Assembly (NCBI GenBank): GCA_001780985.1
Contig: MFJV01000001.1
Span: forward strand, 300,049 to 364,048
Direction of reading: 5' to 3'
DNA length: 64,000 nt
DNA from: Candidatus Gottesmanbacteria bacterium RIFCSPLOWO2_01_FULL_43_11b
GTDB taxonomy: Bacteria > Patescibacteriota > Microgenomatia > UBA10105 > UBA927
The number at the start of each line of letters is the position of its first letter. The first letter of the stretch is position 1. The notes under the pieces were generated by a model, which was given only the letters and a program-made list of their open reading frames with translations, was not told where the DNA came from and did not search any database. Of the stretch, positions 323 to 63,986 are shown in pieces. The translations under genes and the position numbers were made by a program.

Positions 323-970
323 ATGCGTGAAAACTACTCTTTATTTCTTTTATTACCCTACTCACTTTTATCACTAAAGAGAACTCAAGTACATCATTTC
401 CCTCTTGACACCTTTATTAATAATGGTTTTACTGGATATATGGTTAATAAATTTCAAACGAATGCGTCTAATGTGCCGTATTATCTGAATAATCTGGAAA
501 TGTTATTTACCGATTTTTTACAGCAGGCGGGATCATCGGAAAAAACGCGGAAAAACTACAAAAGTGACGCGAATCATTTCTTAGGCTGGTTTATTTTCAA
601 ACTTGAATCCGCGGATCGTCTCCCTCATTCGCATATTGAATTCGTTCAGCGCATCACTCCGCGGTTCGTTGAGCAATATAAAACTTTTTTGCTAGTAAAC
701 AATATTCCAACAGCAACAATCAATCGCAGGCTCTCAACCATTCGAAGTTTTTTCAATTTCTGTCAAACACAAAAGTGGATTTCAGACAGCCCTGCTAAGA
801 ATCTTGCCACTGTTCGATCAAAAAAATTAGAACAGTCACGTTCCCAGGAAGACATACTTTCGTCATTTGCGCGGGATCTCAAAATGGAGGGTGCTTCAAG
901 GGCGACAATAAAAAATTACGTAAGCGACGTCCGGCTTTTTCTCCGTTGGAAAGATATTTATGCCGTTTAA
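323..970 (+). CDS. Protein of tandem phage-integrase-type N-terminal SAM-like (core-binding) repeats with no catalytic recombinase domain; probably joined by a +1 frame junction to the giant gene that follows
   Basis: 215-aa [29 protein letters not shown] ... [12 protein letters not shown] forms one complete core-binding-type helix bundle. A second N-terminal half follows ([28 protein letters not shown]). No R..HxxR..Y catalytic motifs. The stop overlaps the ATG of the 960 ORF, whose first 45 aa are a third copy of the same motif. Confidence 0.55.
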
Positions 971-3900
971 ACCTGCCAATCTCACCCAATACGAAGAACA
1001 CCTTGCTGACCAAGGATACTCTCCTGCAACAATTGCGCGAAAAAAAGCCTCTGTAGGTAAATTTCAACAGTGGGCTGATTCGCGGGAAACGATTACGATA
1101 CCGGCTGAAAACGAACACCCACGGAAAAGTCGCGCATGGATGTATGGAGTTTTGTTAGCACTTGGTGGTATTGGATTGCTAACCATGATCGTCATAGTAC
1201 TGTTGAATCAACAAAGCCGGGTAGCCCCAGCAATTACCAGCCGTGCAGTTGTTGTTGAACCAACACCTGGCACTCGGCCTACCCCGACTGCTACTCCTAC
1301 CCCAGAGGTAAGCACGGTTGCAAAATCTCAAGAGATCCCCTCATCTCAAGCATATACGATCAGCGGAGAGACTGTTACTATCACTACTTCCCCATTTAGC
1401 AACGGCGACATAACGCTCGCACCCGATGGTCAGGGACAGTTCCTCATTCGATCGAGTACAAGCACAGAGAATTCCGTAGATGTTCGCAATGCCAATTTAA
1501 CAACCGGTGCCCTTCTCTACGGGAATGTAGGTAACAGCAATCTTGGGTATGATTTCCTGCGCTTTACCAACGGCCCGGATGAAAAACTCCACTTCTCGGT
1601 CGATGCCTCCGGCAATACCTATATCGGAGGAAATGCAACGATTGAAAATATCCTGCTTGTCGATGAATTAAAGACTAAAGATGCCTCAGCCATACAGCTG
1701 GACAATGCCATCACGTTTAAAGATGCCGGTACGATATCAACAACCAATGGTAATTTGAATCTCCAACCCTCTGGAGTCGTGAATATTCCGGTAATTATCC
1801 AAAATCTCTCAACAAGTAACAGTGGGAGGGTGCAAATCAACGATGATTTACAAATCTATGGATCAGAATGGATTTCAGGGGGGTTAGATGTCAATGGTCG
1901 TACAATTCTCAACAGCAGCCTTCTCATTAAAAATGGTTATGGGCTGCCTGGGTTTGAATTTACTCTTGCCGGCGATGCGACAATTTCCGGAAGTCTTTCT
2001 CTTGCCCCGAACGTGCCGGGTTACGTTGGCACATGCGATTCAAGTAAAGCAGGACTGATCTATTATGATGGAGTTGTAAATATTCTGTACTATTGTAATG
2101 GAACAACATGGGTTTCTGCTGAAAGCGGTGTGGGCGGTCCCACCGGTGCGACTGGGGCGACTGGGGCAACGGGAGCCACCGGAGCGACAGGAACGGCTGG
2201 AGCTTCCGGCCCAACGGGTGCTACCGGAGCGACAGGCGGAGCTGGTCCGACTGGGAGCACCGGAGCAACGGGGGGTGCTGGTGCTTCTGGACCGACCGGG
2301 TCAACTGGTGCAACCGGTGGAGCCGGTATAGGTGGAGCAACGGGGAGCACAGGCTCTACGGGAACAGATGGACCAACCGGACCAACCGGGGCGACAGGGT
2401 CTGCTGGACCAACGGGAGCGACCGGAGCGACAGGAGATGGCGGTCCGACGGGATCCACGGGTGCAACCGGAGCAGATGGACCGACGGGTGCAACAGGCGC
2501 AACCGGAGCTACCGGTACTGCTGGAGCTTCTGGTCCAACCGGAGCGACCGGGCCAACAGGAGGTCCCGGTATTGGAGGGGCTACAGGAAGTACAGGTTCC
2601 ACAGGAGTTGAAGGGCCCACCGGAAGCACGGGGGCGACGGGAGCGAATGGACCCACAGGAAGTACCGGCCCCACTGGGTCAAATGGACCAACGGGGGCGA
2701 CGGGGGCCACGGGTGCAGCCGGAAGCGATGGGCCAACGGGAAGTACGGGGGCCACCGGAGGCGGGGGGCCAACCGGACCAACGGGAACAACCGGTGCTAA
2801 CGGACCAACCGGAAGTACAGGGCCGACGGGGGCCAATGGACCAACGGGAAGTACGGGGGCGACGGGAGCAACGGGAACGGTGGGAGCAAGTGGGCCGACC
2901 GGAAGTACAGGAGCAACAGGGGCTAGTGGGCCGACCGGAAGTACAGGAGCAACAGGAGCTAATGGACCGACGGGATCTACTGGTGCTACAGGCGCAACAG
3001 GGACCGCAGGTGCTTCCGGACCGACGGGAAGTACAGGTGCAACCGGTGGTAACGGACCCACTGGATCGACCGGACCGACGGGATCTGCCGGACCAACCGG
3101 AGCGACTGGTGCGACGGGGGCCACGGGCACTGCTGGTGCGAGTGGACCAACAGGGGCGACTGGGGCAACTGGTTCTAATGGACCAACGGGAAGCACAGGA
3201 ACTACCGGATCAAATGGTCCTACTGGAGCCACAGGCGCAACGGGAGCTACTGGTGCGGCAGGTGCTTCCGGTCCTACAGGAGCAACCGGGTCAACGGGAG
3301 GAGATGGTCCGACGGGAAGTACCGGTGCAACAGGAACAAATGGACCCACCGGTGCAACCGGAGCCACAGGCGCAACAGGTGCAACCGGCGCAAATGGGCC
3401 CACTGGGGCAACCGGAGCGACGGGCGCAACCGGAGCGACGGGAACCGCCGGCGCTTCCGGACCTACCGGCGCAACAGGAGCAACCGGCGCAACGGGAGCA
3501 ACCGGAGACAACGGTCCCACGGGAAGTACCGGCGCAACAGGTGCAACCGGAGGGGATGGTCCGACAGGTCCCACCGGGACAACGGGGGCTAATGGGCCGA
3601 CCGGTGCAACGGGTGCAACGGGTGCAACGGGTGCAAATGGGCCAACAGGATCGACAGGGGCAACTGGCGCAACAGGAACAGATGGGCCGACAGGATCAAC
3701 GGGTGCAACAGGAACGGGTGGCCTCGGTGGTGCAACGGGGGCAACGGGAGGAACAGGAGTTGCTGGTTCTTCCGGACCGACCGGGGCAACTGGCGCAACC
3801 GGGGGAACTGGCGCAACCGGGGTACAGGGACCGACAGGTACGACTGGTTCAACGGGAACAACGGGAGCAAACGGCCCAACTGGGATGACTGGGGCTACCG

Positions 3901-6900
3901 GCGAACGTGGTGCCGCGGGTGAAAATCTCTTTGATCAAACGAATAATCTTATTTACCCCTACCCTGTCGTCAATCGCAGTATTGCTTTGGGAAGCGACAT
4001 ATTTTCTCCCGCCGATGATCCGTCAACAACATCAACTGCGAGTGCCCTTATCATGCTCAATGGCGATAATGGACAGATCTGGGGAGCAGATACTACGATA
4101 GGAAAAAACATCCGGACCGACCTACGAGCACTTAGTAACGTCACCGATGTGTTCGTCTATGATACAAGCAAAGACTCCGACGCCGGATTATGGAGAAATG
4201 ATGATCGGGGCAAAGCAACAAGCTGGTACAACGAAACCATTGATAACCCGGCCGCCACCTGTGTCGTGGATACCGACGATCGCTGTGGCAACAGAGAGTT
4301 TCCAGCCAAAGCCATTATCGTCGTAACTACTACCAAAATGTATATATATGATGCATACGATAACACGCTGTGGATGGATTTCCGCAAAGGCGCGACCACG
4401 ATCGAGCAAATGATCGGGCCGACCGATAATTCCACAGGTTCCAGTGTCTGGGCGTTAAACGGCAAGATTTACTATGCAAATAACGGCTCGGTCGGAGGTC
4501 TCTATGTCATCGATCTTCTCAACGACCGTGCCTACAAATACGACGCCACTAATGATTACGTCGGCGACAAAACCGTGGGAACCAGAAATTCGACGGTCAC
4601 CTGGACGGCCGGACCATCATCACCCATCGTGAATGCAACGATCAATGATATCATGGCACGGGTCATCGGTGGAGACACATACGCTGTCGTAGGAACCGAT
4701 GCAGGTATGTCCGTCATTAACGAAACCGACCGCGCGGTCTTTGATTATGACGATGAGGTGGGAACGGCAGATAACGACTACAATAGCGTCTGGCTCGACC
4801 GTGATGGTAATCTCTGGGACCTCAACGAAACTGCGGGGCAGCTCGATAAATGGACAAACGTCATTGCTGACTCTGCCGATGAAAATCCCGGTAATCCGGA
4901 TACCGTCTGGGACGAATCCTCTACCCCGGCGCTTTTTGACAGCGCGCAAACGATAAACGTGGCACCTTCTGCCCTCACCGTCCGTGAGGGGACGAGTACG
5001 GTGGACGGAAAATCTCCGACCGTTTACGTCGGCCACAATGGCGGACTCACGGCGCTTTCTACCAAGGCAGATGATGAAACCAACGGCTCGGTCAAATATT
5101 ACACCAACTCATATATTACCGAAGAAATGATAGGAGATATCCGCGGCATGTGGCCTTTATACGGCAGTGGTTCCATTGCCGACGGAACCAACAATATCGA
5201 CGATGCCTCAGTCAAATCCGAAGAGCTCACCGCCAAAAATGCCAACGGCACAGGTCTTGCCTACGCCACAGGAGTACGGGGAACGGGAATAAGTTTTGAC
5301 GGAACCGACGATTATCTCTGTTCCGACACGAATGATGACGACACCTGCGACGACACAGCAAATCTTGAATTCGGCGCATCACCCACATTCTCCTACGGGA
5401 CATGGTTCAATGTTAATTCCTCCGGAGGGAATGAATGCGCCGTCAGTGATAAAAATGGGTGTGTAAACTCGACGGCCGGCTACTCCGTGTATAAGGATAC
5501 CACGGACAAGATTGTATGCCGCATCGCAGACGGAAGCAACGCCGCAACGGCCACAACCGTCGGGACACATGCCGACAGCCTTTGGCACCAGGTAACCTGT
5601 ACCGTGGATGGATCAAACATCCGAATCTACATCGATGGGATTCTTGACGCGACATCAAGTATTGCAACCGTGACTGGCTCAACCAACAACACATTACCAT
5701 TTATTATTGGGGGTCAGGGGTCACCAACCACCAATTTTTTCTCGGGATCTATTGACGATGTTTTCGTTACGGCGGAAGCTCTCACTCCGGGTCAGATCAG
5801 AAACCTATACCAAGTTGGCTACCGCGCTTCGCAAAACCATACAGCAGGACGAATTACAAATATCGGAGCGGATGATTATCAGCATCTTTTGGGAAATGCC
5901 TCCGGCGGCACCTCAACCAGTAGCCGTGTGTTTTCTGCCGCAGTCGATGATAGCAATCAATTTATTTATGCCGGAATCAACTCAAGCGGCGATAACACCG
6001 GTGGAGTGACGGTGCTTGGAATTGACAGCGACAGTGCTCTTGATCTTTATGACACAACGGCAAATACCAGTAAAGACGACGATATCGGTACGCAGTTTAA
6101 CGCCAGCGATGCGCTTGCGATATCTGTAGCTGGTGCTCCGTGCCCTGCGTACAACGGCGGCACGACCGCCTGCAACAATAGTGCCACCCTCGCAATCGCC
6201 GGAACTGACGATACGAACTATCGAGTCTGGATGGAGACGTCGGAAATATCACTGTATAACGCGCTTTCTCTTATCAGTAGTCCGTCACTCACGAAAAACA
6301 ATATGACCGTCAACAACATATTCACGATCTACAATACCTATAACAATCTGGATCAATCATCTACAGGAGAAACGATCCAAACCCCGGCGCTTTCCGTCGA
6401 CAGCAACGGGAACCTCGTCTACAACTATCTCGGCACATCAACAAGCGCAACAGCCATGGACTTCAACGATTCCGTACTCACTACAGGAACCATGCTTGAT
6501 CTAACTTCCACGACGCTCACGACGGGAGATGCGCTCAAAATTACCACAAACGCCCTCACGAGCGGCAATGCGCTCGATATTTCCTCAACGAGCACGGCCA
6601 TGACGGGCGATTTGGCGGCGATTACGCTTTCCGGAAGTAACGCTGCCAACACCGGCTCGCTTCTTTCTCTCACTAATAGTGGTACAGCTAATACCGGGGA
6701 GACTCTCTATATCAAACACTATGCTACCGGTACAAATAATCTCGCGATGCGCGTAGACGATGTAAGTAGCGATACGTCACCCTTTGTCATAGACGGCGCA
6801 GGCAACGTCGGCATCGGCCAGTCGGCGCCAGTCAGTCAACTTTATATTGGAAACAATGCCGACAGCTGGACCGATGCGTCCAACTCCCAGGTGACCATAG

Positions 6901-12122: not shown

Positions 12123-12156
12123 AGTTGTTAGTTGTTCGTTGTTTAGTTGTCGGTTA
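12123..12156 (+). repeat. GTTGT-type heptamer array (agttgtt agttgtt cgttgtt tagttgt cggttat) in the 34-nt gap between two pilin genes, directly upstream of start 12122 on the minus strand
   Basis: Same motif family as the arrays at 10657..10705 and 11056..11096. Confidence 0.6.
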
Positions 12157-52844: not shown

Positions 52845-55054
52845 AAGATAATAAACGAAAAGTGAGTCAAAATTTTTCGCGCGCAATCATCCGAGTCAGC
52901 GAGGGCGTGAGCACGAAAAAATTTTGGGCGAACTTTGTGGGATTCGCACTCCTTCTTTTTTCCATAGGCTTTAACCTGTGGATCTACCGCCTCGAACCCA
53001 CTGCAAAAGTAGATCCGAATGATAATCATTTTCAATTTGCATTAGTTGATCGGACGAACCAAATCTTTGATTTTGCACCTAAAAATTGTTCAAAAAAATT
53101 GTCATTTGTCATTTGTCATTTGTCATTTCTTATTGATCACTGGGTGCCCAATTGGGCTGAAGGCTATAACCTCCCCTACTACTATTCCCACATCCCTCAA
53201 ATTGCTATCGTCGCTTTCTGGCGTTCGTTACATATCGGATCTTTATTTCAGTTTTATCATTGGGTTATTTATTTTCTTCTCTCTCTATTTCCACTTTCTT
53301 TATTTCTTGCACTTCGTATCACAGGACTTTCCTGGATAACAGCCGGGGTCGGAGCATTAATAGGATCTCAAATCTCTACCGACGGCTTCTACGGCCTGGA
53401 TCCAGCTTCATTCCTCTGGCGCGGGTACGGGCTTTCAAGCCAACTCTTTGCCATGGTTTTCTTACCGCTTGCAATTGCATTTGCTCTACGAGGCAAAGTG
53501 ATTCCAACGATCCTCACACTTGCCGCTACCACCGCCGGACATCTTGGAATCGGTATTATTGCATTCATAAGTGTTGGTATTGTAGGATTCCGAAAAGTTT
53601 TGTGGATTTGGGTGGGCGCGGGACTGCTCCTTGCCTACTGGATTATTCCGGCATATCTTCACAATAATTACCATAATTTCTCTGTCTGGGATCCTATCTG
53701 GAAATTTGATTCGTATGGTGCAAAAGAGGTCATCACAAGACTCTTTAACGGCAACCTATTCGACTTCGGAAGATTCCCAATTTTGACAATACTTGTATTG
53801 GTGGGATTGTTTGTAAACCGAAATTTTGCCATTCTATTTATTTTTTGGGTGCTCATGTATTTCGGAAGAACAACGTGGGGGTCACTCATCGACCTTGTTC
53901 CCTTTTTGAAAGAATTTCACCAATCTCGCTTTATCGTCGGAATTCACCTAGCCGGATTGTTTCTTATTCCGATTGGTTTCCAATTTCTCTTTCAAAAATT
54001 AAAAAATATCTTTCTTGTTATCCCTATAATTATTTTATTTATTTTCATGATTTATCCCCAAACGACGCGCTATGCTAAACATAACGATTTTTTGATTAAC
54101 CGCGGCAATGCGGACTATCAAAAAGTGGAAGATGACGTGGATTCTTTATTCTTAAATCTTAAATCTTACCTCTCTGCCCGCCCGGGGAGGGTATTTGCAG
54201 GGAGAGGAGGATCTTGGGGACGTGATTTTCGCGTTGCTGAAACCCCCTATTACATGTTCCTTTCTACACATGGAATTTCAACAGTTTTATGGATGCCGGA
54301 AACATGGTCACCAAGCTCTGATACCGAACAGTTCTTCAGTGAAAATCAACCGAAAGATTACGTTCTATTTAATATTAGATACGTAGTAGCGCCACCCAAT
54401 CAACAACCGCAATCATTCTGGAAATTACTCAAAGAGTCACCCACCTGGAAACTCTATGAAGTTGAAACGGAAGGCTACATATCCTCCGGAGTTCGTCCGG
54501 CTATTGTCAGCAGTTCGAAAGAAAACTTTATTAATCTTGTCCACTTATGGATCCAATCAGACTATCACAAGCAAGGTCTTTACCCGCAGTTAATCTTTGA
54601 CAAAGACTATCCAAAAAATTACGGCCTGCCGAATTTCAGAATGCTCGACGAAGTTACCTATAAAGTTCCGGACGGAAGCACCCACAATCTCTTTTCCGAA
54701 GTTCCCAGTTATATGTTGTCAGTTGACAGTTATCAGTTACCAAAAATTCTTTCTCAGGAATCGGACTCTGATATGGTCTTTAAAGCCAAAGTTGAGGTCA
54801 AAGAAGACTGTAAAGAATGTATTGTCATCCTCAAGCAAACCTTCCACCCGTCCTGGCGTGCCACCATCGATGGTAAGCCTGTCGAACCCATCACCGCCTT
54901 CCCCTTCTTTACCGCGGTCAAACTGGAATCAGCGGGAACACACGAAGTCATCTTTTCCTACCAACCATCGGGGATCAAAATAGCGCTCCTTATCGTTTCC
55001 GTCATCAGTCTGGGCGCTCTCTTCGCCCTCACTTCTACTGGCCAGAACCAGTGA
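52841..55054 (+). CDS. Large polytopic membrane protein (putative GT-C-like) containing a heptamer tandem repeat
   Basis: ATGA overlap with the upstream gene (MKDNKRK start, trimmed from the track ORF 52817..55054). More than 12 TM helices and a C-terminal soluble domain. Its 3' end overlaps the convergent giant gene by 20 nt. Confidence 0.65.
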   Translation: MKDNKRKVSQNFSRAIIRVSEGVSTKKFWANFVGFALLLFSIGFNLWIYRLEPTAKVDPNDNHFQFALVDRTNQIFDFAPKNCSKKLSFVICHLSFLIDHWVPNWAEGYNLPYYYSHIPQIAIVAFWRSLHIGSLFQFYHWVIYFLLSLFPLSLFLALRITGLSWITAGVGALIGSQISTDGFYGLDPASFLWRGYGLSSQLFAMVFLPLAIAFALRGKVIPTILTLAATTAGHLGIGIIAFISVGIVGFRKVLWIWVGAGLLLAYWIIPAYLHNNYHNFSVWDPIWKFDSYGAKEVITRLFNGNLFDFGRFPILTILVLVGLFVNRNFAILFIFWVLMYFGRTTWGSLIDLVPFLKEFHQSRFIVGIHLAGLFLIPIGFQFLFQKLKNIFLVIPIIILFIFMIYPQTTRYAKHNDFLINRGNADYQKVEDDVDSLFLNLKSYLSARPGRVFAGRGGSWGRDFRVAETPYYMFLSTHGISTVLWMPETWSPSSDTEQFFSENQPKDYVLFNIRYVVAPPNQQPQSFWKLLKESPTWKLYEVETEGYISSGVRPAIVSSSKENFINLVHLWIQSDYHKQGLYPQLIFDKDYPKNYGLPNFRMLDEVTYKVPDGSTHNLFSEVPSYMLSVDSYQLPKILSQESDSDMVFKAKVEVKEDCKECIVILKQTFHPSWRATIDGKPVEPITAFPFFTAVKLESAGTHEVIFSYQPSGIKIALLIVSVISLGALFALTSTGQNQ
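53092..53126 (+). repeat. A7 homopolymer followed by (TTGTCAT)x4 heptanucleotide tandem repeat inside a coding sequence
   Basis: caaaaaaattgtcatttgtcatttgtcatttgtcatttc, encoding ...KKLSFVICHLSFL.... Confidence 0.8.
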
Positions 55055-58000
55055 GGCTTTCTATCCATTCAAGCTGCAAGAAAGTCCGAATCAGAATCGG
55101 CGGCTCGATATAGCCGATCCCCCATAATACCAATCCGATGCTCAGAACAGATAAGATCGCCGGAACAAGAAATTTGTAAAAAAAGCCGTTTACGTTTACT
55201 TCAAATATTGCTTCGAGCATTTTTTGATATCCTCGAAACCATGCATCAAGTTTCTGTTGTAACCGCAACATTCTTTCTGCTTGTCTTTTTTGATGCAATT
55301 CAATATTTGATATTCCTTCCATCCAATTACCTAATTTCACTCCAAGCTTATTAAGCATTGGTCTAATATGGGGGGCGACATAATGAGCTGCAATGAGTCC
55401 GAGAGCGGCTACCCCTTGCCCAAATAACATATCCGGGTATGGATGCCCACTATAATCATAAACGGAAGTCCCTGGCAGAAAACTCACTGTATAGGCTATA
55501 TAACCCAAGGAGTGTAATGCCTGTATTACCACAATTGTCCCTAAAGACGACCAAAAACTAACGTTATCCGGAATCTGCTTTCCTGTAATCTTCTTAAGAA
55601 CCTCGTTTGCTGCAAAAAACAACAGTCGAAGAGCAATAAACCCTACTGAAACTTCCAACATATCTCCAATATTACTCACCGCCCATGCGAGTGTTGGATT
55701 TGTAGACAACTGTTGAGCCTGGCTAAATGTCAGTCCATCTTCCCTTACAATCGCAGGATTTATTGGTAGCTGATAAGGCATATTCATTTCCACTGGATAT
55801 AACCTCATATAGCGAAAAAGCTCGAGCGTAATCATGGTGAGCCCAATCAAAAACTCAACAGCTCTTGTCGGGATCAAAATATTGTCTAGCAAAGTTGTTA
55901 TAAAATCGGACTTAATTTTATGGTTCTCGAGGATTTTGGAAACAACCGAGGATATTATCGAGACTTTTTCTTGCTCCGTAAATGGTGGTGCACGGTCCTG
56001 GTATTGGCGAGTGAATGCTTCTTCAACGATCGCAGTAACTGTTTCCCGTGCTACTCCCTCCTCCTTCCAGTTTACTTTTGCAAGCACATCAGCAAAATCC
56101 CGCTCAACGACGGCTTGAAGTTGGGTGATTTGGACTTGGAAATTCGGTTGTCGTGATTGTTTTTGGAACAAACCTTTCACCCTCTCCCACGTCCCCTGTA
56201 TGGCATCCCCGATTGCCAGCATCATTTCGGTAGTACGCGGATTGAAAGCATAGATGGATTCGGAAGAGGGTTTTGATACGGATTGCGTTTTCTTGGTTAT
56301 TACAACACCAACCGCAGGAGCACCCATCGATGTCATATGAAATTGACTCCTACTCATGTCAACTGCAAGATCTGTTCCAAGCAGGTATTTCTCATAACTT
56401 CTCGATGACAAAAATTGTGTTTTGTGAAGTTCTTGCGCTTCTGACAATATTTGTCGAAAATCACGTACCCACTGCAACTTCTTTCCTGTTTTTTTCTCTA
56501 GATATTCTTTTGCAACACCAATGGTAAAAATTCCTTTCAGCGGCTCTGCCGGTACAACTGCAATAAATTCGCCGTTTTCAGCAAGTACCTCATCAAGATT
56601 ATGGAAAAATGCCGATAATTCTGTTTCTGAAAGGTGCTCTAGCGTGTGAGATGCAAAGCCTAGGGTAATCTTTCTATCACCCAGAGTCGAAAGAAGCGGA
56701 TTCGTCGCTGACTCGGCAACATTGGCAGTGATAAAGCGAATGTCTTTTCCTTCACGATTAACGCGGGTTTGTGCTTCGGTAATAGAATTTACATTGATGT
56801 CAAACCCTATCAGACTGATATTTAAAGGCAATTTTACAGCCAGTCTGCTTGTCGGATTTGCAAGATCAAATAGGAAATCTCCTTTGTTGGTACCAAACTC
56901 CGCCACCACATCACCGGACGCAAGAGCTGAAAGTTTCCCCCTCTCCACCATCCATAACTCGCTTTTTCCCCAGGAGCCTGCTTTACTCTGGCCGGGGCGA
57001 CGAGATACTGCTACATCAGCATAATCGCTATCATAGTTAGGTGATTCAGTCGATGTCTCTAATGAAGAGGTTCCAGGGCGATAATCGGTTAAAATTTGAA
57101 GAAGCAATGGTTTAAGAGATTCGGGGTTATCGAAGTTCTTCTTGAGCTCTTCAACAAGAGGAGTGCCGAGACGAGCGAGACGATTCATTCCCCGTCGCTC
57201 GAACGGACTCAAATAGTGAGCAAGGAAATCCCAATCGCTATCTGTTGGATTTTGACTATAAAAATCACGAAGTGCAGTAACCGTTCCGCTCCAAACATCT
57301 TGTGCTAATTGTTGTTGAGCAATTGAGAGATTTACTTCATTGTCAGGATCTACTTCCAGTGAAGTGGTATTGGCTTTGAGCGTAAGATCTGTTTTTGCAA
57401 TGACAGAAATTACCGGTGCAATCGGCAAACTTTCACCGGTAAATGTGTAATGCCCTGACCCACCTGCGATAGCGGTTTTTATTGCGGCAATAATCTCATC
57501 CGTTATTTCGATGTTTCTCGGAAGTTCAATGTAGAAATCGCTCCCACTCGGTCGCCAAAAACCGATGTGTGTTTCTTTTCCGATAATATCTGCAATTGCC
57601 GGTACAGACCGATTCAAAATATATCGTAAGAAATCATTTCCGGAAGCATAACCATACTTGTCGTTAATCCATTTGAGTACTCCCGGAACTTCTATTCGTA
57701 ATAAGTTAAAATTCCCTCCTGATTGATTTTCATCTTCAAGGTGGCTAAGTAAATCGGTCCTATCATGGAAGACTTCAATATTGATGTTTTGTTGGATTCT
57801 TAATATATCGACGTCATTGGATAGTACCGGATCAAACAATATCTCTGAGAAGAACTGCAACAAACCCTGATCCCCTTGGACGCTATCAACAATGTCAACC
57901 ATTTCACGGTGATACGTTTTGAGCCTGTTTGCGAGAAGTCCGGCGGAAAGCACAGGTTGAAGTCCGACATCAACAGTATCTGGCACCTCGCGGGTTATGT

Positions 58001-61000
58001 GCACGGATGCAGGTCGATAGACAATGGCGTCCCCTTCTTTGTAAAGGCTTTTGACTTGGTTTGCGGCAGCCTGAACGCGACTAACCAACGCATCATCAAC
58101 TAAGCTTTGTGTGAGAATGCTGAATTCATCACCACCAGTTCGGACTACAATGTAGTCTTCTCCTAATTCTTTTTCAATTGCCGCAATGACGTCATAAATG
58201 AGGTAATCTCCCACAATATTCGAGGGCTGCCCGCCAACATCGTTTGCGCCGCGGATATTCGTGAAGTCAATCGTCAAGGCGTTGTAGCTATTACCAAGGA
58301 GATACCGAAGCACGAATGATCGGAAGACCGGGATAGCTGACCTGTTATTTTTATATTGGGCTTGAACTTCTTCTGTTATAGCAGGGTCTTGCGGCAAGAT
58401 GGCAGAGGGTAAAACTTTCTGGAAACCAGGATCGATTAATCGGCGCTTAATGAACGAGGTAATTTGATCTGCATTTGGGAGGACGCTGAGCTTATCAAAA
58501 TCAATAGAAAGGTTTTCCAGGACTTTTTCTGTCATAGCATCAACCGATGGTGGCGATCGACCGGTCGGCTGAGGAGTTTGCGGTGTCGCTGGAGGCAGAA
58601 GGCTCGGGAAGAATCGCCCGAGAAACTGCCGAATCGGCGCAATCCATCCTTCCCCTACTTTCTGCAATTCCAAAAGCGGCACGGAAAATTCATAGCGTCG
58701 GGTATTACTTCTTTCAATCCAGTCCTCTTTTGTCCCGACCTTTGCGTAATTCCAAAAGACATAACTATCGCTATATCCAAATTCTGCTGAATCACCACCT
58801 TCTGTTTCTATAATCCCGTCGACCCCAATTTCTCGCATAAAAGTCGTAAGCGCGAGATTCGATGGACTTCCTAACCACTGCAGATAGGAATACCCTTGAA
58901 TATACATTGTGCCAAGGAGATATCGAGGGTCAATTTCTGTAAGTTCACCTGACTCAATCCGGTTATAGATCGAATTCAACAAGCGAGTATATTCAGTTTC
59001 ATGATTGGTGTATAAAGCATGAGTCATTCCGGTTAATGATTTAATATGCTCTAAACGCTCTGGCTTGCGCCCAAACCACCAAGAAATGTACGCTTTCACA
59101 AGGGCCGGAGGAACTCTATTTCGGGCATCGAGTAGGGATGCTCGGTAAGGAATAACTGCAGTTACGAAACCTTCGCCCTCCCCTCGTGTTCTTCCGTATA
59201 ATTTTGCTTGCGTTTGATCATCTGTAGTGTATAGACCCACTCCAAGAGTCTGTCCTGCATCTGCATCGTCGTCTAATTCCTCGTCATAGTTTAAACGCAC
59301 TGAAAGCGGCTTTTTTGACCCGTGCCAAAGTACAATCTCGTCAGGCCGTGGAGAATTAATATCAACCGTCAGTGGATCTGTTTGCCCCAAAACAAGAAGG
59401 GGAACAGCTGCATCATTAATGACAATCTCGCTTACTGTGTTTGTGTTATCAAGTTTCTTTCGTATGGTAAAGGTTTTAAAATCAGGAACATTCGTAATAG
59501 GTGCAGTGGTACTCCCCGTGTCTACTCCCTTCTTGCCAAACAAAGATCTGACTCTATTTGCCGCCTCCGCCTTGATAACTCCCTCTAGCTCCCACAGCGC
59601 CTTCCACCAAAACCCAATAAACTCTCGAGTAAGCGAGCGAGATTTCGCTGGCCCCTGGAAATATTCTTCATATACGGCATCGTATGGCCTCAGCGTATCT
59701 CCCGGAAGAATACCTTGGTTTCGTAAACTCAACTCTTTTTCATAATCAGCATTGTGAGCCTGAATCAAACGTAATCTTGTCTGCCACAAATCTACTTTTC
59801 TCTGTGCAGTAGCAGTAAATGGTATAAGAGCTGGCTGAACCTTGACTGCCCCAGAGTTGCTTTGACCACTTGGGTAGTAGTACTCTATTACATTCTTTCC
59901 TATCGTACTTACAACTGGTCTGCCAGACATATACTCACTGTCACTTTGAAAAGAAGTCAAAACTACTACAACAACTATTTTGTCATTCGGCAGTTTCACT
60001 AAAGCAAAATCGTGCGCAACAAATATTTTATCGGCCGGACTGCGAATATTACCAATCATGTTTGCAACAGCATCTTGGTCAACACCTAGGTCAGTACCGC
60101 TTAGCGTCCATTCTGCATCGTCTATAGAAGACGGTGCGGACATGAAAGACCACAAAAGGTTGGTACTTTCATCTGAAAGTCCTAATCGGTCGGAGGCAAA
60201 AAGTTCCAAGAGTTCGCCGAGTGATTTTGCGGTTACTAATCTGGGAGATACGCTAATGTCTGTGATCCCCCAAGAGGAAAAATTATCCTTGAACGTATAT
60301 CCCTGATGAGATTCTACGAATTCTGTAAGAATTTGTGTGGCTTCTTCGTCGTGATTTACAACCATGGCTGATAGTAATTCACGAATATTTTTCGTACTAT
60401 TTTCTGGAATTGCCGCCATAGCTTCTTCAAAAGGCATTCTTTGATTGTCCACCCACCGCAAAACGCTCATGGCAATTGGTATTTTTACGGTAGAAGCAGC
60501 ATGCACCGGAATATCTTCATTTATTTTTATTGTTTTTGATATATTGTCGTCGAGTTCATACACATACACAGACACCAATCCATCTGTCTGAGAAACGGCA
60601 TCTTGAATAGTTGCCGTTAAAGACTGAAAAGCTTGTTGTTCTGCTATTTCTTGAGCATTTTCTACCTCGAGATTGGTTTCATAAATATCTGTTGAAACAA
60701 TATCTCGAACATATTGATAGTATGCAACTGAATCTTCAACATCTTTTTGTTCGTATGTCCATTCACCCTGTCTATATCGCCCATCCCACGTTGGCAAAGC
60801 TCCTTTACCAAGAAGCACGCTATATGTTTTGAGAAACGGTAAATCGACATCAAGTTTTGTATCGACAGGTAGGAAGGTTATACCCTGAATGCCGGCAGTC
60901 AGATGTGCTAGAAGACCGCTAAGCTCGTTGGCATAGCCTACTCGTCTTTTATCTTTCACTATCTGATCACGAACAAGCATTTCGTAGAGAATCCCCTGAT

Positions 61001-63986
61001 TCAGTTCGCCGTTCGGACCAATCCAAGGTGTATCTGTCATAAAGCTCGAACTATTTTCTAGTTCGAGCATTATGTTTTGAAAATCAGTTAATACGCTAGT
61101 AAACCCACCTTGCGCTACTCCCCGCGCCGCCTGATCAAGGCCAATTATTACAGCAACTTGCCCCATTCGTATTGTTCTTCCAAAATGGCTATTGCCCAAA
61201 AGTCCACTACCTGTTCTTAAACGAACGTACCACTGGAGCTGTTCACCATCCATCGTCTCTGTTTTTCCTTTTTCAAATGCGGTAACCCAAATTGGATTTT
61301 CCTCAGTTCCATAGTTATATTTCAGATCAGCAATCGATGTTATTTCAATTCCATTCGGATACAAACTATCAATCAAATTAATAAATCCATAAAACCCCCC
61401 TAAATTAACTGAGTCAACGGGTCTTCCCAAAAACCACTCATACCGATAGCGGACATTTGTTAGGGGCGCACGCGGATCAGTTTTATCAACTCCCGGTAAC
61501 GCATTGTTTTCATCTATATCAAGCGTATCAGGATCATCGATAGGCTCTGTCCACGTTGATTCATTTATCCATTTCCCATCGGCCATGATGACTCTCCGAG
61601 GAACAAGCATTAGTGATATTTTTCCGGTCTTAGTATTAATAAACAAAACAATATTCTGATCAGTTCGACTCTTGCTAAAGGGCAACTCATTGCCTTCTGT
61701 CCCCATAGCGCTATAGGGACTATCTGCGCTTCGTGCGTCCATACCGAGAATTAATACGGTAACTATGGGATCCTCAAGCATTTTCCTTTTTTCTTCTTCA
61801 GATGGGTTTGGTTTTCCGTCTTTTGAAACCCTTTGCCAAAAACGATCTCCTTCTTCTGCGGCTAATTCAGTTCGGTGACGCACTGCATAGGAATGTAAAG
61901 GTTTAGAAATAAATGCAATGAATGGATTTTGAGCATTACTCGTCTGGTCAAATTCTTGCACAACTGTTTCTTCATATAAAGACTGTGCAGCAGGGACATC
62001 ATAATTAATTGTTTGTACTATGGCCGTCGGCTCTTTTACTGGCATTTGTGGTGTCGGTGTAAATACAACGTTGAGCCAAATGACGGCGCTCAAGAGGCCG
62101 TAAGCAAAAGTAGGGACGCCTATTGTCAAACCGGTGGCCCATTTAATGACATTGATAAATGTCTTACGATTTACAAATTTTTCACGAATCCCATTAACAA
62201 ACGCCTGCGCCCTGTCTCTTAACGACCTGCTTTGGATTTCTTTTAACTCTATTGTTTCTTCTGGTTGCTGCGTCTCAACAATTGTTAATTCCGTTGCTGC
62301 ACGGGTAATAATGTCTTCTCGAAGAGCAGTTAATTCTGCAGTTCTGGCTTCCGCTTCAAGTCTTCTTTGGATTGCTGCCTGTTCTGCAAGACCTTCTGTT
62401 TCAAAAATTTCCTGCCTGGATAATTGACCAAAAATCTGCAATCCTTGTTCTCGCGTCATGGTGGGAAGCTCGGCAACAATCGTTGCAAAATCTATTTCAT
62501 CTGCTTCTTTGAGCATTGCAGCGACAATTTTTCGACGCTCAATTTCAGCTTTTCTATCAGGATACAAAAGACCACGAAGTTCACTTCGAAGAGATGAAGC
62601 TAAACTATTGAGCGTCATACCAAGGGGCGCAATCTGTTCGTTGGTGAACCCGTGACCCTCAAGCGATCTAAGAATAATTACATTGAGTTCTGTTGTTGAT
62701 GCGCCGCGGATGTAAGCTTGCGGATATGCATTATCTTCTGATGCGTAAAGATCAAGGAGTACTTGGCCATAGCGATTTTTCACGTCTTCACTCAAACTTG
62801 CGAGTGCTTCAGTTCTTTTTTGTAATGCTTCAATAAGTAACAATCTATTGTTAACTAAATCTTTCTGTCTCTGCGCTTCTTGAGCTAGTTCAAGAGCTTC
62901 AGCCTCCTGTTTTTGGGTAAACCAGGTGTCCAAATTCGCAGAAAACTCTTCGAGAGCGTTGTTGGTATTCTCAAGCCGATCAACGCTGCGGACTCTGGAC
63001 AGTAACGATCGCTCGGCGAGCATGGAGTTAAGCGCATTCATGAATGAGGCAGGAGTTCGGGGAATTTGCCCGCCGGACGTACGCACATCAATGCCGTTTG
63101 CAACTAAATCCGCATGTACTTTTGTGAGCGCCTCTGAAACTCCTTGCATACCAGAAATCGCTCCTATCTCCTGCAGACGATCAGTGACACCAGAAAGTAG
63201 CAAAACGATTTGATCTCGCAATCCTCCTCTCGCTTGCGCTTGCTCTGCCCTTCGAGCAAGTTCTTCAGCAGAAGGCTCTGTGGAAACAGGAGCAGCAGGT
63301 GGTTTCGGCTCGCTCGAGGGTTCTGTTGATTCTGCTAGTTTTTTCGCCGTGTTGACAACATCAATTTTCACCTGAATTTCATTAATCAAGTCCTGAATTT
63401 CTTTACCCATGCGGAATGCTTTGAAGGCCGGTAAAACGCCGGATTCCAGCGCGTCCTGAAGAGCTTCGAGGGAGGCGGGGCTCCGGAGACGATTGGCTTT
63501 TTGTTGAATTACAGGTAACACTACTTTTTGAGCAATATCTTGTGCCTGGTCAATCGTTTGAGCGGTAAATCGAATTCTCCCAAGGTTTACACCAGCATTC
63601 CTCACGCTCTCAACCAGAGTTTTAAGTTGTTCGCGCAGTTGAATACCCAGATTTTTCGGCACGGGCGGCGCAATTGGTGGTGGTAGAGCTGGGGGAATGA
63701 TATCACTGCTTTGTTTAGCCTGAACAAGTGCGTTAACTGCTTCCGTTTGCTGCTTAATCTCTTCGGTAGTTGTTAATCCGTTGAGCAGTAAAGGATTTTG
63801 ATAATGCTCTTTGAAGTACAAATTATACTCTCTCAACGCGACCCCATATTTGAAAAATTCAACCATCTTTTCTTTCCATTGTGTATTGTCCAAATCAGTA
63901 TCAGATGGAATAACCCGAAGGGAATTTGCGTGAGCATACGGTCCATTACTCCTTATGAGATTATTGATTTTATTGTTCATCGACAC
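55035..63986 (-). CDS. Giant multidomain membrane protein (2983 aa): coiled-coil N-terminal region, TM helix, LCP (LytR-CpsA-Psr) domain, beta-lactamase-like serine-hydrolase domain, GGDEF domain, degenerate GGDEF domain, class-I methyltransferase-like domain, C-terminal TM bundle
   Basis: Uninterrupted 8.95-kb ORF. TM helix at ~62040-62140. LCP motifs VTVLILGMDARS...SRTDQNIVLFINTKTGKISLMLVPRRVIM...VDSVNLGGFYGFINLIDSL (~61290-61770). HAASTVKIPIA SxxK with ADKIF (KTG-like) (~59790-60600). IDFTNIRGANDVGGQPSNIVGDYL...YIVVRTGGDEFSIL (GGDEF at ~58123-58137). WINDKYGYASGNDFL...IGFWRPSGSDFYIEL (~57525-57570). LNISLIGFDIN...LEHL (~56780-56840). Confidence 0.85.
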   Translation of the reverse strand: MSMNNKINNLIRSNGPYAHANSLRVIPSDTDLDNTQWKEKMVEFFKYGVALREYNLYFKEHYQNPLLLNGLTTTEEIKQQTEAVNALVQAKQSSDIIPPALPPPIAPPVPKNLGIQLREQLKTLVESVRNAGVNLGRIRFTAQTIDQAQDIAQKVVLPVIQQKANRLRSPASLEALQDALESGVLPAFKAFRMGKEIQDLINEIQVKIDVVNTAKKLAESTEPSSEPKPPAAPVSTEPSAEELARRAEQAQARGGLRDQIVLLLSGVTDRLQEIGAISGMQGVSEALTKVHADLVANGIDVRTSGGQIPRTPASFMNALNSMLAERSLLSRVRSVDRLENTNNALEEFSANLDTWFTQKQEAEALELAQEAQRQKDLVNNRLLLIEALQKRTEALASLSEDVKNRYGQVLLDLYASEDNAYPQAYIRGASTTELNVIILRSLEGHGFTNEQIAPLGMTLNSLASSLRSELRGLLYPDRKAEIERRKIVAAMLKEADEIDFATIVAELPTMTREQGLQIFGQLSRQEIFETEGLAEQAAIQRRLEAEARTAELTALREDIITRAATELTIVETQQPEETIELKEIQSRSLRDRAQAFVNGIREKFVNRKTFINVIKWATGLTIGVPTFAYGLLSAVIWLNVVFTPTPQMPVKEPTAIVQTINYDVPAAQSLYEETVVQEFDQTSNAQNPFIAFISKPLHSYAVRHRTELAAEEGDRFWQRVSKDGKPNPSEEEKRKMLEDPIVTVLILGMDARSADSPYSAMGTEGNELPFSKSRTDQNIVLFINTKTGKISLMLVPRRVIMADGKWINESTWTEPIDDPDTLDIDENNALPGVDKTDPRAPLTNVRYRYEWFLGRPVDSVNLGGFYGFINLIDSLYPNGIEITSIADLKYNYGTEENPIWVTAFEKGKTETMDGEQLQWYVRLRTGSGLLGNSHFGRTIRMGQVAVIIGLDQAARGVAQGGFTSVLTDFQNIMLELENSSSFMTDTPWIGPNGELNQGILYEMLVRDQIVKDKRRVGYANELSGLLAHLTAGIQGITFLPVDTKLDVDLPFLKTYSVLLGKGALPTWDGRYRQGEWTYEQKDVEDSVAYYQYVRDIVSTDIYETNLEVENAQEIAEQQAFQSLTATIQDAVSQTDGLVSVYVYELDDNISKTIKINEDIPVHAASTVKIPIAMSVLRWVDNQRMPFEEAMAAIPENSTKNIRELLSAMVVNHDEEATQILTEFVESHQGYTFKDNFSSWGITDISVSPRLVTAKSLGELLELFASDRLGLSDESTNLLWSFMSAPSSIDDAEWTLSGTDLGVDQDAVANMIGNIRSPADKIFVAHDFALVKLPNDKIVVVVVLTSFQSDSEYMSGRPVVSTIGKNVIEYYYPSGQSNSGAVKVQPALIPFTATAQRKVDLWQTRLRLIQAHNADYEKELSLRNQGILPGDTLRPYDAVYEEYFQGPAKSRSLTREFIGFWWKALWELEGVIKAEAANRVRSLFGKKGVDTGSTTAPITNVPDFKTFTIRKKLDNTNTVSEIVINDAAVPLLVLGQTDPLTVDINSPRPDEIVLWHGSKKPLSVRLNYDEELDDDADAGQTLGVGLYTTDDQTQAKLYGRTRGEGEGFVTAVIPYRASLLDARNRVPPALVKAYISWWFGRKPERLEHIKSLTGMTHALYTNHETEYTRLLNSIYNRIESGELTEIDPRYLLGTMYIQGYSYLQWLGSPSNLALTTFMREIGVDGIIETEGGDSAEFGYSDSYVFWNYAKVGTKEDWIERSNTRRYEFSVPLLELQKVGEGWIAPIRQFLGRFFPSLLPPATPQTPQPTGRSPPSVDAMTEKVLENLSIDFDKLSVLPNADQITSFIKRRLIDPGFQKVLPSAILPQDPAITEEVQAQYKNNRSAIPVFRSFVLRYLLGNSYNALTIDFTNIRGANDVGGQPSNIVGDYLIYDVIAAIEKELGEDYIVVRTGGDEFSILTQSLVDDALVSRVQAAANQVKSLYKEGDAIVYRPASVHITREVPDTVDVGLQPVLSAGLLANRLKTYHREMVDIVDSVQGDQGLLQFFSEILFDPVLSNDVDILRIQQNINIEVFHDRTDLLSHLEDENQSGGNFNLLRIEVPGVLKWINDKYGYASGNDFLRYILNRSVPAIADIIGKETHIGFWRPSGSDFYIELPRNIEITDEIIAAIKTAIAGGSGHYTFTGESLPIAPVISVIAKTDLTLKANTTSLEVDPDNEVNLSIAQQQLAQDVWSGTVTALRDFYSQNPTDSDWDFLAHYLSPFERRGMNRLARLGTPLVEELKKNFDNPESLKPLLLQILTDYRPGTSSLETSTESPNYDSDYADVAVSRRPGQSKAGSWGKSELWMVERGKLSALASGDVVAEFGTNKGDFLFDLANPTSRLAVKLPLNISLIGFDINVNSITEAQTRVNREGKDIRFITANVAESATNPLLSTLGDRKITLGFASHTLEHLSETELSAFFHNLDEVLAENGEFIAVVPAEPLKGIFTIGVAKEYLEKKTGKKLQWVRDFRQILSEAQELHKTQFLSSRSYEKYLLGTDLAVDMSRSQFHMTSMGAPAVGVVITKKTQSVSKPSSESIYAFNPRTTEMMLAIGDAIQGTWERVKGLFQKQSRQPNFQVQITQLQAVVERDFADVLAKVNWKEEGVARETVTAIVEEAFTRQYQDRAPPFTEQEKVSIISSVVSKILENHKIKSDFITTLLDNILIPTRAVEFLIGLTMITLELFRYMRLYPVEMNMPYQLPINPAIVREDGLTFSQAQQLSTNPTLAWAVSNIGDMLEVSVGFIALRLLFFAANEVLKKITGKQIPDNVSFWSSLGTIVVIQALHSLGYIAYTVSFLPGTSVYDYSGHPYPDMLFGQGVAALGLIAAHYVAPHIRPMLNKLGVKLGNWMEGISNIELHQKRQAERMLRLQQKLDAWFRGYQKMLEAIFEVNVNGFFYKFLVPAILSVLSIGLVLWGIGYIEPPILIRTFLQLEWIESLTGSGQ

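Follow-up and report, generated by a model that had tools for sequence, protein, structure and literature searches.

ToxR and CadC are bitopic, membrane-anchored DNA-binding proteins with an N-terminal cytoplasmic fold, a single transmembrane helix and an extracytoplasmic C-terminal part. Bacillus BclA and the streptococcal proteins Scl1 and Scl2 are collagen-like surface fibres, and the GPT repeats of BclA are O-glycosylated. Split genes for one protein or domain are known from reduced genomes, and split inteins are an established case of fragment complementation. In tyrosine recombinases, including phage integrases, the core-binding (CB, SAM-like) domain lies N-terminal to the catalytic (CAT) domain and binds the recombination site, and the CAT domain carries the RKHRH pentad and the tyrosine nucleophile (PMC8138268).

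Here we describe a pair of overlapping genes in a 64,000-nt stretch of DNA (hereafter the window) from Candidatus Gottesmanbacteria bacterium RIFCSPLOWO2_01_FULL_43_11b (GCA_001780985.1, contig MFJV01000001.1, positions 300,049-364,048 of the forward strand). The organism belongs to the Microgenomates (CPR) and its source habitat is groundwater; source samples include JGI 3300025317, ENA ERZ4903055 and SRR3989342. The setting of the pair is chromosomal, with leuS upstream and pilin-like and glycosylation genes downstream, and a big glycosylation gene cluster lies close to the larger, giant gene. In some relatives competence genes adjoin the pair. The features, in window coordinates, are as follows, A and B standing for the first and second halves of a CB domain.

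323-439, forward strand: 5' extension of the small ORF, spanning and preceding the promoter-like block; probably non-coding
405-433, forward strand: promoter-like block (TTGACA at 405-410, 17-nt spacer, TTTACT at 428-433)
440-970, forward strand: small gene from its most likely start, 176 aa, stop TAA at 968-970 (Pfam, half-domain HMMs, AF2, Foldseek)
491-604, forward strand: A1, first half of CB domain 1 (half-domain HMM match)
653-802, forward strand: B1, second half of CB domain 1 (half-domain HMM match)
851-961, forward strand: A2, orphan first half of CB domain 2 (half-domain HMM match)
960-970, forward strand: 11-nt gene overlap, small-gene end GCC GTT TAA over giant-gene start ATG CCG TTT AA
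960-10658, forward strand: giant gene, 3,232 aa
966-1115, forward strand: B2, helices 3-4 of CB-like domain 2, giant residues ~3-52 (Pfam and B-half HMM)
1140-1205, forward strand: single transmembrane helix, residues 61-82, with RKSRAW just ahead (hydropathy)
~2130-3990, forward strand: collagen-like Gly-X-Thr repeats, residues ~390-1010 (Pfam Collagen)
5367-5798, forward strand: best stretch of two Laminin_G_3 domains, residues 1470-1613 (Pfam, E 2e-29)

The pair resembles the CB domains of tyrosine recombinases (Pfam Phage_int_SAM_1/4/5; XerC/XerD, lambda Int, Cre, IntI, XerA) in its predicted fold and in its motifs, T.KNY..D...F..W in the A half and TINRRLS.LR.F in the B half. Unlike those enzymes, it has no catalytic domain, tyrosine nucleophile or RKHRH pentad, and its CB domains stand in tandem; in relatives they are fused to a transmembrane helix and a giant extracellular protein, and here the last of them is divided between two polypeptides. 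Like ToxR and CadC, it combines a probably cytoplasmic N-terminal nucleic-acid-binding fold, one transmembrane helix and an extracytoplasmic C-terminal part, but with a putatively DNA-binding helical domain of CB type in place of a winged helix, a cytoplasmic module partly on a separate protein, and a 3,000-residue collagen-like fibre in place of a small sensor domain. Long Gly-X-Thr repeats in a surface protein, here with a glycosylation cluster nearby, recall BclA and Scl1/Scl2, from which the giant protein differs in its N-terminal membrane anchor and putatively cytoplasmic CB-like half-domain, its far larger size and its extra LamG and fibre domains. As with split genes and split inteins, two genes supply complementary fragments in an evolutionarily stable arrangement, with association of the fragments into one fold proposed here; the cut, however, falls inside a small domain of four or five helices, with a soluble protein on one side and a giant membrane protein on the other, and no splicing chemistry is implied. 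We found no description of this architecture in the literature searched.

The two ORFs and the stop/ATG overlap reported by the first-pass annotation are real. As called mechanically, the small ORF runs from 323 to 970 (215 aa) and matches Phage_int_SAM_1 (PF02899) at 51.7 bits (E 1e-13; cut-off 22.3), with one full domain at residues 62-148 of the 215-aa numbering, where the match is full length (profile 4-80 of 83) and above the gathering score, and a second, partial match at the C-terminus. Pfam detected no Phage_integrase catalytic domain in this ORF, in the 3,232-aa ORF or in the other window ORFs scanned. NCBIfam models for XerC, XerD and XerA aligned only over positions 3-101 of ~295, at 37-47 bits against cut-offs of 220-335. 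The CB domain of a tyrosine recombinase is thus present, by profile and by AF2 matches, and the CAT domain is not, which upholds the earlier view that neither gene is an integrase or a marker of mobile elements.

ATG 440 is the most likely start of the small gene, because its homologues begin 3-20 residues ahead of A1 and a conserved ATG aligns with window position 440. The upstream part of the mechanical ORF is probably non-coding, because it covers the promoter-like block and the sequence ahead of it. In an alignment of the window with four other diverged loci (L001, L009, L010, L011), CCYCTTGACA-N17-TTTACT-N6-ATG is invariant or nearly so, with TTTACT ending 6 nt ahead of ATG 440, and we regard the block as a putative promoter. 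This spacing suggests an mRNA that is leaderless or nearly so. A generic sigma-70 scan did not list the block because its second hexamer has no A at position 2.

The small protein is cytoplasmic and basic (pI 9.9, net charge +10), and small proteins are basic across the family (median pI 9.6). Its AF2 model (pLDDT 89.7) has helices at residues 12-29, 34-57, 65-70, 74-86 and 91-110, then at 128-149 and 154-174. The sequence gave no match among PDB chains at E<=1, and a fold search was therefore needed. All top Foldseek matches in the PDB were CB domains of tyrosine recombinases, including 3nrw (TM 0.79, rmsd 2.5), lambda Int, XerA, XerD, Cre and IntI, with E-values that were weak (0.06-0.5) and matches that were consistent; the modelled fold is that of the tyrosine recombinase CB domain.

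The giant protein begins with the B2 half-domain, followed by the membrane anchor, a Thr/Pro linker, a conserved N-proximal surface domain, the collagen-like repeats, the two Laminin_G_3 domains and fibre-like repeats, and it closes with a conserved C-terminal ...FNWWVIN. Pfam Collagen matches five stretches (E 2.2e-65), and the long Gly-X-Y repeats that mark a bacterial collagen-like protein are visible in the translation; GC content at 2001-4000 is 0.64. The N-proximal surface domain is common to P0001, P0003 and 35 GTDB loci, and the C-terminal end recurs in L003 and L004. Its architecture argues for an N-in topology, with the N-terminus in the cytoplasm. The window's second giant ORF (55035..63986, minus strand) has no SAM-like N-terminus.

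At the junction, the small ORF ends with approximately profile positions 1-40 of Phage_int_SAM_1 and the giant, in the +1 frame with its ATG at 960-962, opens with positions 45-81 of 83. The match in the giant is weak (residues 5-41, E 0.004); B2 alone scores 17.8 bits, under the cut-off, and 59.9 bits with a B-half HMM. As the earlier reading had it, this SAM-like stretch sits just ahead of the membrane anchor, but it completes domain 2 as its second half and is not the third copy of a repeat. An artificial join of ...FLRWKDIY to MPFKPANL... yields one full-length domain (profile 3-81 of 83, 37.1 bits, E 4e-9), and domain 2 is full length only with A2 and B2 so joined. By this restored match, the pair encodes two CB domains made of four helical-hairpin halves, A1-B1-A2 on the small protein and B2 on the giant. 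The motif that had been taken as common to all copies is real between halves, which are weakly alike (the B-half HMM matches A2 at 14.7 bits), and it makes no third domain.

Relatives encode the same halves without interruption. In P0002, P0005, P0006, L018, L039, L040 and L042, one or two CB-like domains, a transmembrane helix and a surface region lie in one frame, which supports the earlier proposal that a DNA-binding-like module was taken over as the cytoplasmic part of a surface protein. The AF2 model of the natural fusion P0002 has two equal helical domains (4-99 and 125-211, pLDDT >90) and a long helix (247-273) after the second; the split point falls at a lower-confidence linker (~162-168), and in such fused relatives A2 and B2 are modelled as one domain. 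In a tree built from the surface domain, the 19 split loci sampled all group together. Because the fused A-B-A-B-TM relatives fall outside this clade, the tree points to a single old fission of a continuous gene.

The boundary between A2 and B2 is kept in 84 related loci, 83 with A-B-A followed by B and one with A-B-A-B-A followed by B; at 90% they reduce to 65 non-redundant loci, among which protein identity is 30-50% and both halves are well conserved. The downstream gene always opens with M and 1-12 residues, then B, and a transmembrane segment follows shortly after B2 in nearly all loci (hydropathy scan). A profile of the small protein found 1,608 protein clusters at E<=1e-5. Of the best 120, 116 are A-B-A (151-224 aa, with a median of one residue after A2) and 3 are A-B-A-B-A, and all of these end in an A half. 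The A2 motif SxxTIKNYLSDxRxFLxW is among the best-kept parts of the small protein, and its invariant or near-invariant hydrophobics F143, L147, Y160, F167, L168 and W170 match F23, L27, Y40, F47 and W50 of A1. B2 keeps Y..L..S..T..RK.S..KF..W, a consensus conserved over 23 giants. We conclude from this conservation that selection acts on both orphan halves. A giant with B first lies downstream of the small gene in 61 of 80 metagenome loci, and 16 of the other 19 end too early, leaving three exceptions among 64 informative loci. The halves are thus separately coded, co-occur and together give one known fold, as a split pair would.

Mutual information between A2 and B2 was no different from that of A1-B1, a positive control that itself failed, or of the negative controls A1-B2 and A2-B1, so that this comparison had no power. 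A 62-aa profile of 23 B2 N-termini, a query too short for the index and database size, matched one of 5.8 billion proteins.

Our favoured reading, which we hold at somewhat better than even confidence, is that the pair forms a two-gene module conserved in Patescibacteria of the Microgenomates type, born of an old fission, in which docking of A2 onto B2 tethers the small protein to the fibre. An ancestral gene would have encoded two CB domains, a transmembrane helix and a giant surface fibre, and would later have been cut. The two genes would now be translated separately, coupled through the 11-nt overlap, and A2 and B2 would pack non-covalently in trans, rebuilding one CB-like domain. The small protein, with its intact DNA-binding-type domain, probably docks onto the fibre in this way and would be held at its cytoplasmic tail. 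As collagen-like fibres are trimers, about three copies might be tethered per fibre. The module would connect the surface fibre with a partner in the cytoplasm; DNA is the most plausible one, because CB motifs and basic charge are retained. The link could be separable, unlike that of the covalently fused relatives. Sequence-specific DNA binding by the small protein is putative, and its fold, motif retention, charge and architecture are consistent with it.

A second reading, less probable but to be taken seriously, accepts that the genes are real and co-inherited and denies that the halves are complementary. The small protein would then act on its own as a DNA-binding regulator, whose target might be, for instance, the giant gene or its upstream spacer, and A2 and B2 would each make other contacts, such as homo-oligomerization or packing onto domain 1. 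The DNA-binding fold and the basic charge fit such a role, and the A2 hairpin is confident on its own in the AF2 monomer model (pLDDT ~96). In three loci with 1.9 kb or more of downstream sequence (L058, L088, L100), an intact A-B-A gene is followed by a giant without a recognizable B half, so A2 can persist without an adjacent B2; in L088 and L100 B2 is truncated. Additionally, many relatives have a conserved spacer, rich in inverted repeats, just upstream of the giant gene, at 1230-1350 in L099 for instance, which could be an operator; the window has no spacer between the two genes. A per-sequence search found a covarying closing stem in these spacers, and RNAalifold on a MAFFT alignment, in which the arms were out of register, gave no consensus. 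No Rfam family matched the spacers at gathering score or at E<=1, and an intron or ribozyme there was rejected. If the small protein were a free regulator, there would be no evident reason for every boundary to fall inside one domain, between A2 and B2, for each small protein to end in A and each giant to start with B, or for both orphan halves to keep the core hydrophobics of an intact domain.

Programmed +1 ribosomal frameshifting, or other recoding at ~955-970, would yield one fused polypeptide, and we consider it very unlikely. It draws on the window and its closest relatives (L001, L002, L009, L010, L011), in which the giant occupies the +1 frame, with its start -14 to +7 nt from the small-gene stop. 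Across the family, however, frame relations of 0, +1 and +2 occur in similar numbers (7, 8 and 8 in the first set; 20, 28 and 13 in the metagenome set), gaps between the genes range from -14 to +1464 nt, and in some loci whole genes of the NYN-domain or 23S_rRNA_IVP families are inserted. Each downstream gene carries an ATG of its own, 1-12 codons ahead of B2, and no common slippery motif is visible at the junctions. A programmed frameshift is marked by a fixed frame and a conserved slippery or stimulatory site, a pattern that the family does not show, and this mechanism is largely refuted for the family.

An indel from sequencing or assembly, or a recent inactivating frameshift in one real gene, is still less credible. 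One domain does span both ORFs and fused homologues exist, but four independent assemblies (JGI, two ENA and Logan) give the same junction sequence, and two of them carry 1-2 SNPs relative to the window at other sites. Neither error nor decay would account for a boundary kept over the 65 non-redundant loci at such divergence with the halves well conserved, or for small proteins that stand alone in 1,608 clusters and vary little in length. The suggestion that a frameshift at ~955-970 broke up one longer gene therefore fails, whether the break is read as an error, as the sign of a recent pseudogene or as programmed, given the identical junction, the 84 loci, the three frame relations and the inserted genes, and survives only as history, in the old fission. 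A continuous frame does exist in relatives, in the fused forms, but the 84 loci share one gene boundary.

The chance landing of a tyrosine recombinase or mobile-element remnant beside a surface-protein gene, a reading that public names such as 'site-specific integrase' or 'XerD' for some family members (most of those seen had no name) might encourage, has a negligible likelihood in view of the absence of a catalytic domain from both genes and from the other window ORFs scanned, the chromosomal setting and the covalent fusion of the domain to a membrane-anchored surface protein in relatives.

Returning to the docked module, we can offer a more speculative extension, to which we assign a low probability. 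The split CB-like domain may be a reversible latch, whereby A2-B2 complementation lets the fibre keep a DNA-binding protein at the membrane and release or re-orient it upon contact with a host cell, and the structured spacer of relatives could belong to the same circuit. If true, this would be a contact-to-chromosome signalling or DNA-tethering device in episymbiotic CPR bacteria, made from a domesticated recombinase DNA-binding domain.

These findings have implications for annotation. The family comprises over 1,600 clusters of proteins from CPR genomes and metagenomes; these lack a catalytic domain, and some are labelled 'site-specific integrase' or 'XerD'; counting them as markers of mobile elements thus inflates such counts for Patescibacteria. 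For protein evolution, the family offers a clear natural example, widely sampled, of a small domain that was cut in two and has stayed so. A soluble protein carries one half and a giant membrane protein the other, which makes the split domain a tractable system for studying fragment complementation in vivo. For CPR biology, the module provides a handle on how the giant fibres of ultra-small, probably host-attached bacteria connect to the cytoplasm, and possibly to DNA.

Two separately encoded proteins jointly hold two core-binding (CB, SAM-like) domains of the tyrosine-recombinase type, with the second domain divided between them. The underlying pair of overlapping ORFs is present as the first-pass annotation described it:

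323-970, small ORF, 215 aa, TAA at 968-970
960-10658, giant ORF, 3232 aa, in the +1 frame, ATG (960-962) within the last codons of the small ORF

The SAM-like matches that had been proposed are strong in the small ORF, where Pfam recognises one complete Phage_int_SAM_1 domain (residues 62-148, 51.7 bits, E 1e-13) and a further, incomplete stretch at the C-terminus, and only partial in the giant, whose residues 5-41 match profile positions 45-81 of 83 alone (E 0.004). Artificially joining the end of the small ORF (...FLRWKDIY) to the start of the giant (MPFKPANL...) yields a full-length match (profile positions 3-81 of 83, 37.1 bits, E 4e-9). The layout is thus A1-B1-A2 on the small protein and B2, transmembrane (TM) helix and fibre on the giant, A and B being the first and second helical-hairpin halves of a CB domain. 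The giant N-terminus was misread as a third SAM-like copy, and is the complementary half (B2) of the domain begun by A2. The halves weakly resemble each other (the B-half HMM matches A2 at 14.7 bits), which explains the single recurring motif noticed earlier in both ORFs. In the giant, a hydrophobic helix (residues 61-82) immediately follows RKSRAW, and the rest comprises collagen-like repeats (E 2e-65) and two Laminin_G_3 domains (Pfam). The GC-rich repeat region (GC 0.64) also holds two long alternative-frame ORFs, which are by-products of the Gly-X-Thr codon repeat and not genes:

2090-3574, - strand, 494 aa
2332-3888, + strand, 518 aa

The absence of a recombinase catalytic domain had been noted; Pfam found none among the window ORFs scanned, and alignments to the NCBIfam XerC/XerD/XerA models cover no more than their first ~100 positions and score far under cut-off. 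In tyrosine recombinases the CB domain contacts the recombination site, and the tyrosine and RKHRH pentad are on a separate CAT domain (PMC8138268), which is missing from the pair described here. By fold these proteins are members of the CB/SAM-like family. They are not tyrosine recombinases, since a search for the catalytic domain that defines those enzymes found none. Some small proteins are labelled 'site-specific integrase' or 'XerD' in source databases.

The likeliest start of the small gene is 440 (176 aa), with a transcript that is leaderless or nearly so; 323-439 would then be non-coding. This start is suggested by homologous small proteins, which begin 3-20 residues ahead of A1, and by a CCYCTTGACA-N17-TTTACT-N6-ATG block that is invariant upstream of the small gene in five diverged loci:

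405-442, + strand, promoter-like block from the five-locus alignment (TTGACA 405-410, TTTACT 428-433, ATG 440)

Additionally, the end of the small gene overlaps the giant ATG by 11 nt, which suggests that the giant is translationally coupled to it.

The AF2 model of the 176-aa protein (116-sequence alignment, pLDDT 89.7) has a first domain of five helices (12-29, 34-57, 65-70, 74-86, 91-110) and then a hairpin of two (128-149, 154-174). In Foldseek, the top PDB matches are without exception tyrosine-recombinase CB domains (2kd1, lambda Int, 3nrw with TM 0.79 and rmsd 2.5, XerA, Cre, IntI), with probability ~1 and weak E-values (0.06-0.5). The natural fusion P0002 is modelled as two equivalent helical domains (4-99 and 125-211, pLDDT mostly >90) with a TM helix at 247-273; in the PDB it too matches CB domains, XerD 1a0p among them, and the split point maps to a lower-confidence linker (~162-168) that separates helix 2 from helix 3 in domain 2. 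Both orphan halves are under selection: A2 has five invariant and seven near-invariant positions in the 116-sequence alignment, and its conserved hydrophobics (F143, L147, Y160, F167, L168, W170) have counterparts in A1 (F23, L27, Y40, F47, W50). The B2 consensus of 23 giants is i.......Y...l......s..t..Rk.ssl.kF..w..a...gyl..NPf. An exposed A2 hairpin with a conserved hydrophobic face would need a partner, and we infer that this is B2, because homologous fused proteins have A2 and B2 in one domain.

We scanned stop-to-stop segments with A-half and B-half HMMs in three locus sets: 35 loci from GTDB species representatives, retrieved via the giant's surface domain; three retrieved via small proteins; and 80 metagenome loci retrieved via the small protein. 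The A1-B1-A2, then B2, arrangement recurs in 83 loci and in L003 as A-B-A-B-A, then B (65 non-redundant at 90%). Fused relatives, with the repeats in one frame as envisaged earlier, do exist (A-B-A-B in P0002 and P0018, A-B-TM-surface in P0005 and P0006, and fused loci L018, L039, L040 and L042). In split loci the gene break falls without exception between the last A and the last B, and the giant-side gene always has its own ATG 1-12 codons ahead of B. The frame relation (0/+1/+2) is 7/8/8 for the first set and 20/28/13 for the metagenome loci, and the small-gene stop lies -14 to +1464 nt from the giant ATG. P0001 and P0003, found by the artificial-fusion search, start with a B half, and their upstream SAM-like ORFs end 4 nt and 1 nt before the ATG, respectively; 6 nt after P0004, which is A-B-A-B-A, a collagen-like giant with B first and then a TM segment begins in the same frame, and it shares the C-terminal end of the window giant. 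Several loci have a whole additional gene, of the NYN-domain or 23S_rRNA_IVP kind, between the two, as in the first four below, and genes of this sort apparently come and go at the locus:

L034 2044-2880
L035 4612-5190
L045 6575-7147
L046 6636-7349
Window 10711-11070, + strand, 3' of the giant, 23S_rRNA_IVP/bAvd-like four-helix-bundle gene

A B-first giant was seen in 61 of the 80 metagenome loci, a small-gene-first sample; in 16 of the other 19 the sequence runs out no more than 741 nt past the small-gene stop. In the remaining three, each with at least 1.9 kb of downstream sequence, the B half was not recognisable and the small A-B-A gene is intact:

L088 3335-4124
L100 788-2605
L058 4190-7483

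The L088 and L100 giants start MEINKGKILAF with a TM helix directly after, B2 being truncated. L088 also has an apparent frameshifted B2 remnant just upstream.

These three loci favour the main rival explanation, that the small protein is a free regulator whose half-hairpins have other partners. So does a conserved, structured element in the 82-146-nt spacer between the two genes of many relatives, absent from the window:

L099 1230-1350
L073 2608-2734
L019 5212-5331
L104 3546-3669
L012 2181-2377
~30 further loci

Present once per locus, it has a 9-16-bp closing stem whose sequence differs between lineages while complementarity is kept (arm pairs AATGCGGGCTGCC/GGTAGCCCGCATT, ACGGTGGACCGCCTT/GAGGTGGTCCACCGT and CGGGTAGCC/GGCTACCCG), an internal hairpin whose loop is G-rich and SD-like (TGGGGGGAGCC or TGGAGGGGAGCC), and ATTTTnATTATA(A/C)CAC after the stem. 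No Rfam family was found for it; candidate roles are those of a terminator plus promoter, an attenuator or an operator. However, the strict A/B boundary rule and the conserved core positions of the half-domains argue against a free regulator with other hairpin partners. A mutual-information test of A2-B2 covariation had no power, since the A1-B1 positive control, like A2-B2 itself, could not be told apart from the A1-B2 and A2-B1 negative controls.

The exact small protein is present on seven contigs, and in the four compared at the junction (one JGI, two ENA and one Logan assembly) positions 900-1000 are identical, two of them carrying 1-2 SNPs relative to the window elsewhere. These identical junctions, together with the variable frames and gaps and the inserted genes, rule out a misassembly, an intron, a pseudogene of recent origin and a programmed frameshift common to the loci; the suggestion of one gene broken by a frameshift at ~955-970 therefore fails as an account of the present junction.

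A profile of 19 small proteins retrieved 1,608 clusters at E ≤ 1e-5 from 5.8 billion proteins. Among the best 120, 116 are A-B-A (151-224 aa, median 1 residue after A2) and three are A-B-A-B-A; the general form of the small proteins is therefore (AB)n-A, with giants beginning with B. Taxa named are Gottesman-, Blackburn-, Woese-, Shapiro-, Collier- and Levybacteria and 'Microgenomates group'. Many of the GTDB records in which this Microgenomates-type locus occurs bear the title 'uncultured Gammaproteobacteria/Pseudomonadales bacterium' (binchicken MAGs; L009, L012, L016, L019-L021, L023, L024 and others) and one the title 'Bathyarchaeia archaeon' (L022); these look like placeholder names or mis-binned contigs, not true hosts. 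In a rough NJ tree of the shared surface domain (98 columns), all 19 split loci included group together, with only A-B-fused L016 and L022 nested among them and the A-B-A-B fused forms outside. The simplest reading is one old fission of a fused gene.

Upstream, the source contigs, L002 and L003 have a divergent leuS; in L002 and L003, comEA and comEC lie further out on that side. Pilin-like genes follow the giant:

Window 11101-12410, - strand, two type IV pilin-like genes (N_methyl, T2SSG) just downstream of the giant
L003 14243-16147, distant L003/L004 locus, type IV pilin-like genes, strand opposite to the giant
L004 9040-10944, same locus and genes

Together with comEA/comEC, these may mark a conserved surface or DNA-uptake neighbourhood. 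The remainder of the window is a large glycosylation/envelope cluster, with these further features:

16031-16693 and 17218-18009, + strand, two AbiEii-type nucleotidyltransferase toxin-like genes, close together (type IV toxin-antitoxin/abortive infection)
17957-50111, glycosylation/envelope cluster: DegT aminotransferase, GFO/IDH/MocA oxidoreductase, epimerases including an RmlD-like one, several GT2 and GT4 glycosyltransferases, three PMT_2-type membrane glycosyltransferases, YfhO-like protein, methyltransferases, hexapeptide transferases
55035-63986, - strand, second giant ORF, 2983 aa, GTG start 14 nt from the window end

The second giant has an unusual mixture of Pfam matches (LytR_cpsA_psr, Beta-lactamase2, GGDEF, methyltransferase) and lacks a SAM-like N-terminus. 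The collagen-like repeats of BclA are glycosylated, and by analogy the cluster might glycosylate the Thr-rich collagen-like repeats of the first giant.

Both half-domains are conserved, as is the boundary between the genes. In the giant, B2 leads into a TM helix and the C-terminal portion is fibre-like. The giant N-terminus is probably cytoplasmic (N-in), because the protein has no signal peptide, a folded helical N-terminus before a single TM helix, and large collagen/LamG parts. We suggest that A2 and B2 rebuild one domain non-covalently, which would dock the basic small protein (pI 9.9; family median 9.6) on the fibre tail; the fibre would be trimeric, and thus roughly three copies would be docked. 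The cytoplasmic partner would probably be DNA. A literature search of incomplete coverage, which gives absence of evidence only, found no account from CPR bacteria of CB proteins that are CB-only, membrane-anchored or split. The nearest functional analogues of this arrangement are DNA binders anchored in the membrane, of the ToxR/CadC type, collagen-like surface fibres such as BclA, and split genes relying on fragment complementation.
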